This document shows positions 1,429 to 2,837 of a stretch of 64,000 nt of DNA, in pieces. Under the pieces are notes generated by a model. That model saw only the letters and a list, made by a program, of their open reading frames with translations, was not told the origin of the DNA and did no database searches. Origin of the DNA: an uncultured Clostridia bacterium (GTDB lineage Bacteria; Bacillota; Clostridia; TANB77; CAG-508); NCBI GenBank assembly GCA_947630065.1, contig CANRGE010000003.1:17792-81791 (forward strand), read 5' to 3'. Both the position numbers and the translations under genes were made by a program. The first letter of the stretch is position 1, and the number at the start of each line of letters is the position of its first letter.

Positions 1429-2837
1429 TTACCTTATATAAAGTACAACTCGAAAGCCAATATCGCTAGACGAATGGCTAACTAGATGATCACCTGTGCG
1501 ATAGGCTGCTGGGTTAGTTGAAGACACACTAGCAAAACAACCACCACGAAGAACTCGATTGTTTGCTACGCTTGTTGCTGAACTATAGTAAGACACTTCT
1601 TCTGTCCATTCCCATACGTTTCCAGCTATGTCATATATGTTATATGCTCTATTGTGGTCACTTGCCCCTGTTGTTAATAAGTAATATGTGCTATTTAGTT
1701 TTGTTCCTTCTCCTACTTCTCCAAATGATTGTTGATACCAAGTACTTCCACTTTGACTATATAATGACGCTCTTCCTATGTAATCAAATCCTGCTGTATC
1801 TCCTTGATAATAATTTCCAAATTCCTTTGAATCTGTTCCTACATTTCTATTTTCTGTACTTTCTAATTTTTTCATTATTACATCCCATTGCGTTCCCGTT
1901 ATTAGTCCACTATGTACACTTTCATTTCCTTTGTACATTTTTTGCGCATTTATTTGTGATTTATCCCAATCTATAAAATCCCATGGTGATATTCCTGGTT
2001 TACTTTGTGCCTGCCCTTCTACATTATTGTAATATGTATTTGAACCGGTATTTGGTTGTTGCACATTAAATTCTTCTGTTCCTTTTGGTAATCCTGCTTC
2101 GAATCTTGCTACATAAAATCCTCCATATTTGCATGCCAATTTTGTCTCTGCCGATTGTGTTATTTGATCCCAATATGCTACTCCGCTATTTGTAAATGAT
2201 TTTTTTACATATGTTGTTTCGTCGCATGGTATCCATACAAATTGATTTCCTATTAAATTATATTTTAGTTTTCCATCTTCTAATTCTATTCCTGATGGTA
2301 CTTCAGTTTGTCCTGCATATTTATTTTGGTCTGCTCGTTCATCTGATATTACCACTCCAGTTGCTAGTGTTCCTCCTACATAGAAAAATCCTTTTGGTAT
2401 AGGTATTGTTTGTCCTTCTCCATCACTTACTGCATATACGCTTGCTAGTTTTGTTGATTTTTCTACTATATCTCCATTTGCTGTTGATGTAATATTTGGT
2501 GTTATTACTCCCCAACTGCTTGGTGTTTTTACTGGTGTTCCTGCATCTGTTTCTGGTGTGTTTTCTGGTAAGTTTTCTCTTTCTATATATTCTAAAAATT
2601 CATCTAATGCAGATTGTTCTTCATCTGCTGATTCCTTATATTTATCTACTGCGTACTCTGCTCCTCTTAATATTCCGTTATCTCCTAAAGCAAAATTTAT
2701 CGCCACTCCTGCTAATATTAATAATAAAATTATTGTTATTATTAGCGCTATTAGCGTTATCCCTTTTTCCTTCCTATTCGTGTGTGTGTGTGTGTGTGTG
2801 TGTGTGTTACTCTCTCAACGTTTTTAACATTTCTCAT
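1429..2837 (-). CDS. phase-variable secreted/anchored protein: (Thr-His)n N-terminus, pilin-like hydrophobic leader and C-terminal FGE-sulfatase (formylglycine-generating-enzyme family) domain; currently out of frame (OFF)
   Basis: ATG at 2837 gives MRNVKNVERV followed by (AC)14, i.e. THTHTHTHT. The 28-nt repeat puts the downstream frame out of register, with a stop 7 codons later. The long ORF 1429-2706 (MAINFALGDNG...) lies in the +1 frame. Its C-terminus (GNVWEWT...RVLRGGCF...GFRVV) is the FGE/SUMF1 signature. The N-terminus is about 90% identical to the in-frame paralog at 44241-45209. Confidence 0.7.
2780..2807 (-). repeat. (GT)14 / (AC)14 dinucleotide SSR inside the 5' coding region
   Basis: Direct count: g2780 to t2807 is an alternating GT run of 28 nt. 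The paralogous locus has 16 units. Confidence 0.95.

Follow-up and report, generated by a model that had tools for sequence, protein, structure and literature searches.

In outer-membrane protein genes of Helicobacter pylori such as sabA, and in the opa genes of Neisseria, a short repeat follows the start codon within the part that encodes the export signal, and slippage of this repeat switches the gene ON or OFF. Here we analysed a gene of comparable layout, gene A, on the minus strand of a 64,000-nucleotide (nt) stretch of DNA from an uncultured Clostridia bacterium (contig CANRGE010000003.1, positions 17,792 to 81,791; hereafter, the window), the product of which would join a pilin-like leader to a large extracellular head. 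With their repeats in the 5′ coding or signal-peptide part, sabA and the opa genes are both parallels to gene A. Compared with sabA and opa, gene A differs in its repeat unit, AC (AG in one relative), in its host, an uncultured Gram-positive gut commensal, in its signal, which is pilin-like and not of the Sec type, and in a 5′ cassette that is common to unrelated heads and to a mobile element. For SabA, one study places repeat tracts in the promoter as well as within the coding sequence (PMC2715451). In the literature that our search returned, repeat-driven phase variation is described mainly in pathogens (Helicobacter, Neisseria, Campylobacter and mycoplasmas), and gut commensals appear with epigenetic phase variation and diversity-generating retroelements (DGRs). 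The locus described here would place a repeat-driven switch in abundant, uncultured gut Clostridia.

A second point of comparison is the modular pilin, a concept set out in PMC8179133. PilB (with a vWA module) and PilC (with a lectin module) of the monoderm Streptococcus sanguinis resemble the gene A product in having a class III-type N terminus and helix, a short linker and a bulky binding module (PMC8179133, PMC9934059). In contrast to PilB and PilC, the pilin part of gene A is helix-only, lacks a beta-sheet head, has Ala in place of Glu5 and scores below threshold for IPR012902/PF07963; its family has many copies scattered outside the pilus operon, and their assembly into a pilus is presumed.

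The third comparison concerns the head. TvpA of Treponema denticola is a lipoprotein and Mtd of Bordetella phage BPP-1 is a phage tail-fibre protein; the gene A family has a pilin-like N terminus instead. Both share their fold with gene A, as well as a formylglycine-generating enzyme (FGE)-sulfatase motif without the FGE catalytic residues and a C-terminal variable region (VR), and belong to category b (PMC5758913). Unlike TvpA and Mtd, gene A has no template repeat or reverse transcriptase (RT) in the window, its VR equivalent is constant and its expression is repeat-switched. Cellular DGR targets usually consist of an N-terminal membrane anchor and a binding domain (PMC8144416, PMC5758913), and a GspG-type pilin domain holding a VR has received a passing mention (PMC11661182). 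The nearest published analogue is found in Bacteroides, where a DGR diversifies type V pilus adhesins (bioRxiv 10.1101/2024.11.15.621889). Both cases concern gut commensals that pair a pilus-type scaffold with hypervariable adhesive heads; they differ in pilus class (type V versus type IV-like), phylum and leader, and a search of the Bacteroides paper turned up neither phase variation nor invertible switches. Our literature search found no description of the leader motif, of an FGE domain joined to a pilin or of repeat switching in gut Clostridia, nor, apart from the GspG mention, of pilin-like DGR targets in Clostridia. The components themselves, namely repeat switches, lectin-fold DGR targets, modular pilins and mobilizable elements, are already known. 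The gene A family would join three themes that are mostly studied apart: type IV pilin-like display, DGR-diversified C-type-lectin heads and spread by mobile elements. We put at about 0.6 the probability that gene A encodes a repeat-switched modular pilin-like adhesin, with processing and a ligand as predicted below.

Tract length sets the reading frame of gene A

The (TH)n tract named in the original prediction, which was made from the sequence alone, is present and is encoded by (AC)14 (Table 1). The tract begins ten codons 3′ of the ATG, and its unit length is not a multiple of three. Three-frame translation showed that the ATG frame at this tract length (n = 14) reads MRNVKNVERV(TH)4T followed by RIGRKKG-stop, so that it stops after 27 codons with the ending MRNVKNVERVTHTHTHTHTRIGRKKG*. 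The long frame (NRKEKGITLIALIITIILLLILAGVAINFALGDNG...), which runs to the stop codon at 1429-1431, is offset from the ATG frame by one base and has no start codon before a GTG within the hydrophobic membrane helix. Positions 1429-2837, predicted earlier as one coding unit, are therefore not a single open reading frame (ORF) at n = 14; in silico removal of one AC (n = 13) or addition of two (n = 16) restored proteins of 468 and 470 amino acids (aa), respectively. The frame of gene A is ON at n = 1 mod 3, and because n is 14, the window copy is OFF. A repeat scan found (AC)≥6 at just two sites in the 64 kb, at the same position in gene A and in a second gene, paralog B, and none of 100 shuffles of the window gave any (AC)6. 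The gene A promoter is kept upstream of the paralogs (alignment A2).

We traced other alleles of the locus from the exact 425-aa frame 3′ of the tract and from its cluster at 90% identity. The locus, present in four other metagenome assemblies, has the order UvrA, MurD, gene A, a 145-aa gene, a CBS protein and an AI-2E transporter. Besides the OFF allele of the window, with (AC)14, we found an allele with n = 10 (L091) that is ON with an intact 466-aa ORF (P0242), and OFF alleles with n = 11 (L092) and with n = 12 and one AT interruption (L090). The window, L090 and L091 encode one and the same head protein, to which that of L092 is about 98% identical. P0001, a variant allele (96% identical), differs in its first ten codons and has only (AC)3. 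Tract lengths that differ among near-identical alleles and toggle the frame, with both ON and OFF states represented, appear from these assemblies to be the signature of a contingency locus and bear out the phase variation that had been predicted; switching within populations would be frequent and reversible.

With a less strict DNA pattern, in which (AC)≥6, a gap and the leader codons succeed one another, we recovered the repeat-leader design in 12 further metagenome loci; the two other matches (L098 and L102) were unrelated chance hits. Five samples contained one and the same 565-aa leader gene, ON at n = 24, 18 and 17 and OFF at n = 22 and 20, and six more leader genes carried (AC)11-15. 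Tracts of (AC)11-24 were seen in 565-aa Fn3-like, 352-aa BspA-type leucine-rich repeat (LRR), 673-aa and 340-aa leader genes (L093-L101, L103-L106). Several of these genes share a pre-tract peptide ...ESL[GAT]AV, encoded by GAAAGCCTTxxGGCTGT with a small inverted repeat, and L103 has (AG)n followed by (AC)6. An FGE-family gene of rabbit-gut Clostridia (L069:7616-7730) carries (AG)15, read as (ER)n, ten codons after the ATG, before the leader and in frame; it is an independent repeat at the (AC)n position. Most of the 80 relatives that we inspected in species-representative genomes carry no repeat, so the switch would be a lineage-specific addition gained more than once. The exact DNA pattern of the cassette shared by gene A and paralog B had no match in JGI metagenomes or IMG/VR.

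We propose that slipped-strand mispairing alters the number of AC units, that translation from the single ATG would reach the leader only at n = 1 mod 3 and that cells would toggle heritably and reversibly between making the protein and making none. Because the tract lies N-terminal to the conserved Gly of the leader, in-frame length changes would affect only the part that is cleaved off or stays as a cytoplasmic tail and would spare the exposed protein.

A different account of the same alleles is that gene A is a decaying pseudogene, its tract differences being neutral noise or assembly error instead of a switch. Three of the four tract-bearing alleles are out of frame, one of them with the AT interruption, and related paralogs (L001 g1, L002 and L003) carry a 1-nt insertion after the leader. 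Coverage is low as well: the tract lengths were taken from consensus assemblies at 5-7x and not from reads, which weighs against the switch itself. Decay is nevertheless hard to reconcile with the intact in-frame allele (P0242, n = 10), with a stop-free 425-residue downstream frame that is identical or about 98% identical among alleles, or with a perfect consensus promoter; the tract position recurs in other genes and lineages, again in both ON and OFF states, and tracts of 20-32 nt fit well inside the read length. We consider a pseudogene very unlikely and retain the contingency switch. The window also encodes a complete MutS with all five domains (16041-18689, minus strand), so the long dinucleotide tracts exist in a genome that apparently encodes mismatch repair.

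The N-terminal module is related to an operon-encoded pilin

The leader of gene A (KGITLIALIITIILLLILAGVAINFALG) has Ala at +5, in agreement with the Glu5-less pilin-like leader of the original prediction. A logo of 166 relatives reads [KR]-G|I-T-L-[IV]-A-L-[IV]-[IV]-T-I-I-x-L-[LI]-I-L-A-G-V ... G-[DE]-N-G-[IL]..A..A...Y. The Gly before the helix is invariant (166/166) and is preceded by K or R in 136/166; a median of 9 mostly basic residues lies before it, and repeat-bearing leaders have about 25. In an AlphaFold model, the hydrophobic helix (ITLIALIITIILLLILAGVAI) spans residues 3-31 and is followed by a second helix (residues 36-67) with a predicted local distance difference test score (pLDDT) of 57-66.

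Using the first 74 residues as query, we recovered many complete 73-76-aa proteins made up of leader and helix alone. Two of 74-76 aa (P0177 and P0136) are encoded in gene clusters on low-GC contigs of two diverged lineages. Each cluster starts with genes for a PilM/N-like protein (539-545 aa), a PilO-like protein, a small membrane protein and the 74-76-aa protein, continues with a 256-261-aa protein that has the A24 peptidase N-terminal domain (A24_N_bact, E 1e-28 to 1e-30), and ends with one to two minor pilin-like genes, some with G-F-S-x-x-D N termini, two T2SSE ATPases and a T2SSF platform protein. By this gene content, the clusters are type IV pilus operons. The 74-76-aa operon pilin, the candidate major pilin, likewise has Ala, not Glu, at +5. 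P0136 aligned over its full length with gene A residues 21-92 (54% identity, 72 aa, E 6e-15), and the FGE-family fragment P0127 aligned with the pilin P0164 at 77% over 69 aa (E 4e-27); the family's N-terminal module and the operon pilin are therefore homologues. The pilin relationship first proposed from the leader thus has a counterpart in the pilus operons of related bacteria, a Glu5-less protein beside a prepilin-peptidase-like gene, and a cleavable Sec signal with no pilin relationship is at odds with this homology.

Several observations weigh against a role in a pilus. At +5, Ala occurs in 152/166 relatives, Ser in 12/166 and Glu in 0/166. The Pfam N_methyl model PF07963 gave 19.0 bits for gene A and 18.7 bits for paralog B against a cut-off of 21.2; it matched 22/62 relatives at E ≤ 0.01 (best 8.2e-5), and TIGR02532 matched 0/62 family members scanned. 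The structure model has no globular pilin head, and its second helix is of low confidence. The operon peptidase-like protein had no match to the catalytic Peptidase_A24 model at E ≤ 0.01. No pilus or peptidase gene was present among the approximately 50 window ORFs scanned, and neither motif scans for pilus genes near family genes nor tblastn searches of the window and 1.36 Mb of loci with the L107 and L109 pilus proteins found any outside L107-L110.

These observations would fit a leader that is a mere uncleaved signal anchor, or a long Sec signal cut by signal peptidase I near AGVA|I, so that the protein would stay in the membrane or be released, with no pilus role and with a likeness to the operon pilin that reflects the shared ancestry of a convenient hydrophobic helix. 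Such an anchor would account for family genes that lie scattered among housekeeping genes and never beside pilus genes, for the loss of Glu5 in all 166 relatives together with sub-threshold pilin hidden Markov models (HMMs) and a missing pilin head, and for at least 10 copies per genome, far above the usual number of minor pilins; such targets have been described simply as membrane-anchored (PMC8144416). It would not account for a helix and a G[DE]NG..A..A...Y motif that, unlike ordinary signal peptides, are kept position by position across unrelated heads, or for homology along the full length of the module to an operon-encoded pilin. The hydrophobic stretch of 21-25 residues is also too long for a typical Sec h-region, and the Gly with its short basic leader fits a class III signal. 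We regard a plain signal anchor as unlikely and favour a pilin-like module.

As such a module, the protein would begin with a short, basic, Gly-ended leader peptide, followed by a pilin-like helix of about 65 residues with a class-III-signal-like N terminus, and would be held in the membrane by the helix, its head on the outside. Cleavage after Gly by a pilin peptidase is probable, and the protein might then serve as a modular pilin, displayed through the type IV pilus machinery; otherwise it would remain a membrane-anchored stalk. If the link to the pilus is true, these bacteria would build a type IV pilus from a major subunit that functions despite the loss of the conserved Glu5. The signature [KR]-G-ITL[IV]AL..T...ILAGV...G[DE]NG is missed by current pilin models, and surveys of pilins and of DGR targets could be re-run with it.

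The head has an FGE-sulfatase/C-type-lectin-like fold

A Pro/Thr-rich linker (LPENTPETDAGTPVKTP) comes after the leader, in line with the predicted low-complexity linker, and the LPENT motif of this region is kept across the family. The AlphaFold model, built from the family alignment (pLDDT 87, predicted template modelling score 0.81), places in order the membrane helix, the second helix, the linker and a large beta-rich globular domain; pLDDT was mostly >90 in this ectodomain. The Pfam FGE-sulfatase model PF03781 matched the C terminus of gene A (E 2.5e-10, 40.9 bits against a cut-off of 23.3) and covered only the last third, residues 391-464 (1444-1665), at profile positions 168-254 of 255. 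The full FGE-sulfatase domain that had been predicted therefore stands at the level of the fold, which we accept because the structure model, and not the HMM, shows it whole; Pfam sees only the last third.

Foldseek gave as best matches of the head CarF, Mtd variants of Bordetella phage, TvpA of Treponema, TaqVP, PorK, PvdO and EgtB, with ToxD also among the matches, and matches in viral models were to an FGE-domain protein and tail fibre proteins. The PF03781 and Foldseek matches leave no sign of a C terminus of other than FGE-family fold. A profile of 62 relatives searched against solved structures matched only pFGE and FGE, over about 70 residues; the best match in the PDB was pFGE (SUMF2, 1y4j; E 3.6e-5) over the last ~70 residues. 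pFGE is catalytically inactive. Human FGE (SUMF1) and pFGE belong to the same superfamily as the gene A head; in contrast to them, gene A lacks the catalytic Cys pair, has an extra N-terminal beta-rich part and is predicted to be held at a bacterial surface by a membrane or pilin anchor. When aligned by profile to 2aft, the family has no equivalent of the catalytic cysteines (human Cys336 and Cys341), and gene A reads RGGCFASVSST at these positions. By its fold matches, the head belongs to the C-type-lectin-like branch of the FGE-sulfatase superfamily, which includes DGR variable proteins.

A working exported enzyme of the formylglycine-generating, EgtB or PvdO type could be read into several of these matches: PF03781 itself, the weak hits to EgtB, OvoA and PvdO models, the Foldseek matches to EgtB, PvdO and ToxD, and the enzyme name that NCBI gives to the relative P0044. 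Yet the sequence-level match is limited to the structural C-terminal third, neither cysteine position has an equivalent, the best PDB match is the inactive pFGE, and the closest folds include the non-enzymatic Mtd, TvpA, TaqVP and PorK. Relatives are moreover DGR targets whose variable residues are placed where the ligand site would be. TvpA, with the same FGE-sulfatase motif, has no FGE activity (PMC5758913). An enzymatic FGE was rejected on the absence of the catalytic cysteines in the family, and an enzyme of any of these types is highly improbable. Rather than act as an enzyme, the head of the adhesin would bind an extracellular ligand.

Relatives of gene A are targets of DGRs

At 80 genome loci of relatives, we searched the flanks of each family gene for copies of its 3′ end. 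At 12 loci, the last 108-125 nt of the family gene were repeated 1.2-1.9 kb downstream. The mismatches fell nearly all at adenines of the downstream copy in 10 of the 12 (7/7, 12/12, 16/17, 13/15, 12/14 and so on), and at 11 of the 12 loci gene and repeat were separated by an ORF bearing the IGNYTSQ and YMDD motifs of DGR RTs. Eleven full-length relatives with VR and template repeat are 37-45% identical to the gene A protein. The template repeats and RTs of these relatives place the family among the TvpA-type targets of DGRs, which made up the largest class in one survey (PMC5758913). The original prediction, which assigned no function to the family, had missed this link; with it, the function can be narrowed, as far as the sequences allow, to a probably non-enzymatic, ligand-binding head.

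For gene A itself, the window speaks against current diversification: positions 1429-1700 have no second copy in the 64 kb, even at word size 7, no window ORF has the RT motifs IGNxxSQ and YxDD, and the window copy, P0242, P0243 and P0001 do not differ in their C-terminal 45 residues. A DGR acting on gene A from within the window was ruled out, as neither template repeat nor RT motif is present there. The VR equivalent is GC-richer than the rest of gene A, its end resembles the VRs of DGR-bearing relatives, and it is the most divergent, hypervariable segment between paralogs. This divergence looks old, because third codon positions differ too.

On top of the switch, gene A could still be actively diversified, as a remote target, by a DGR at another site in the genome. 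TvpA offers a precedent for such targets (PMC5758913). The VR equivalent keeps the GC-rich sequence and the ...CTTTATAT end of the DGR VRs of relatives, and the L019 template repeat of one relative assembly matches a paralog VR on another contig, with 11/14 mismatches at template adenines (other paralogs match poorly). A remote but active DGR sits badly with a VR equivalent that does not vary among the four allele sequences, which come from different samples, and with paralog differences that look old, and 64 kb yielded no template repeat or RT; we hold it to be quite unlikely. From these comparisons, we conclude that gene A is probably a paralog with a fossil or remote VR. In L111 (10001-11308 and 16573-17106), an FGE-family gene with an N terminus 77% identical to an operon pilin is split into 107-aa and 250-aa pieces, followed 6 kb further downstream, where the contig ends, by an RVT_1 fragment.

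The 5′ cassette is shared with a gene on a mobile element

A paralog with the same leader and an unrelated C terminus had been predicted, and paralog B has this form: it shares residues ~17-68 near-identically with the gene A protein and then diverges. At the DNA level, 2638-2929 and 45006-45292 form a cassette of about 290 bp that is about 82% identical (blastn) and spans the promoter, ribosome-binding site (RBS), start codon, tract, leader and first helix up to AEYAVDKY; beyond it, the genes are unrelated. The C-terminal domain of paralog B had 14 relatives among 1.84 billion representatives in an exhaustive search, four with the same leader and one with a Sec-type signal, and none indicating a function. 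A word-index homology search with paralog B matched only paralog B itself, and its single-sequence model was unusable (pLDDT 41).

Paralog B lies between perfect 53-nt direct repeats (42295-42347 and 50223-50275), the second of which is the 3′ part of tRNA-Leu (50223-50306). Together with the site-specific integrase and a Mob_Pre relaxase unaccompanied by a conjugation apparatus, these repeats identify the segment as an integrative mobilizable element, so the prediction that the leader is shared between chromosome and mobile element holds. The element had no real relative among PLSDB plasmids or GenBank phages. It also contains small DUF3846 and sigma-like genes (47483-48389), and just left of its attL side lies a YhcG/DUF1016 PDDEXK nuclease gene (39938-41035).

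The family proved modular, as predicted. With or without a repeat, the leader also occurs on BspA-type LRR, Fn3-like and unassigned domains, often in tandem arrays, in addition to the FGE/lectin-fold heads and the orphan ectodomain of paralog B. In two FGE-type paralog families, the same 1-nt insertion (TTA-C-GGAGATAA) lies right after the leader (L001:286-440, L002:~700-830 and L003:1-90). The insertion puts leader and head in different frames, so gene callers start the head at 'MHYGDNGIL'; P0255, with a paralog-B-type head, begins in this way and points to the same insertion. That different paralogs in different samples bear the same lesion suggests exchange of the 5′ cassette between paralogs. 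These paralogs are flanked by a 58-aa gene and a ParE-toxin gene (L001:1773-2266, L002:113-606 and L003:1421-1914), and a large serine recombinase with phage-like genes lies next in L002 (2451-4184); from such neighbours, other paralogs may also be on or beside mobile DNA.

The promoter-repeat-leader cassette is thus portable, being found with different heads and on mobile elements. More tentatively, and at rather less than even odds, uncultured low-GC gut Clostridia may have turned a Glu5-less, helix-only pilin module into a portable display cassette, with dozens of interchangeable binding heads on one pilus machine and four sources of variation: repeat ON/OFF switching, 5′ cassette exchange, horizontal delivery on mobilizable elements and DGR hypermutation of the heads.

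Table 1 Features of gene A, paralog B, the mobile element and related pilus operons (positions refer to the window unless a locus is given)
Feature	Position	Strand	Basis or remark
Gene A	1429-2837	-	All elements described earlier are present there
Promoter of gene A, TTGACA-18 nt spacer-TATAAT	2876-2905	-	12/12 match to consensus
RBS of gene A, AAGGAG, 10 nt 5′ of ATG	2848-2853	-	Read from sequence
Part coding for leader peptide, ATG (2837-2835) to Gly codon (2763-2761), includes tract	2761-2837	-	Translations
(AC)14 tract encoding (TH)n; (GT)14 on the plus strand	2780-2807	-	Repeat scan, translations
Hydrophobic helix ITLIALIITIILLLILAGVAI, counterpart of pilin alpha1-N, Ala at +5	2698-2760	-	AlphaFold model, logo of 166 relatives
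Conserved G-[DE]-N-G motif and amphipathic helix	2578-2697	-	With 2698-2760, homologous to entire operon pilin (P0136); model
Pro/Thr-rich linker (NLPENTPETDAGTPVKTPSSWG)	2509-2577	-	Translation, model
Globular ectodomain, beta-rich part and FGE-sulfatase/C-type-lectin-like fold	1432-2508	-	Model, Foldseek, Pfam
VR equivalent (RVLRGGCFASVSSTNPAAYRTGDHLVSHSSSDIGFRVVL), ends ...ACTTTATAT	1441-1557	-	Corresponds to VR of 11 DGR-bearing relatives
Shared 5′ cassette of gene A: promoter, RBS, ATG, (AC)n, leader, first helix	2638-2929	-	blastn, alignment A2
Paralog B, 322 aa, in frame, ON	44241-45209	-	Same leader, rare orphan beta-rich C-terminal domain
(AC)16 tract of paralog B	45148-45179	-	Repeat scan
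Shared 5′ cassette of paralog B	45006-45292	-	blastn
Integrative mobilizable element, ~7.9 kb	42295-50275		Direct repeats, gene content
Mob_Pre relaxase	43177-44127		In mobile element
Helix-turn-helix (HTH) regulator	46061-46765		In mobile element
Tyrosine integrase (Phage_integrase)	48639-49844		In mobile element
Type IV pilus operons, low-GC gut Clostridia	L107:7131-16240; L109:5865-14856

Family size and neighbouring genes

The architecture of gene A had been called unusual, a description that did not survive the searches. The repaired gene A protein gave 5,965 matches at E ≤ 0.001 among 8,000 candidates scored, with coverage of 90-100% among the best matches listed, and many copies were present per genome (at least 10 loci in one Hadza-derived assembly). 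A gene A relative was encoded on 475 stretches in species-representative genomes; all relatives listed from such genomes were from uncultured Clostridia or Clostridium gut assemblies, and the closest, from uncultured Clostridia assemblies, were 46-49% identical to gene A. By these counts, the architecture is common, not rare. At least one relative (P0044) is named 'SUMF1/EgtB/PvdO family nonheme iron enzyme' by NCBI; our results suggest that this family of thousands consists of variable surface binders.

PHROGs and NCBIfam scans gave nothing informative for gene A, paralog B or the small neighbours. Directly 3′ of gene A, in 5/5 assemblies (the window, L001 and L090-L092), lies the 145-aa ORF (window 927-1364, minus strand), which has no family match and a Pro/Arg-rich tail (PRPYYPQRPPMPRPRPIF). 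Further along the window, positions 12007-15956 hold an ORF6N-domain gene, ORFs without assignment and an HTH regulator, and resemble a remnant of mobile or phage DNA.

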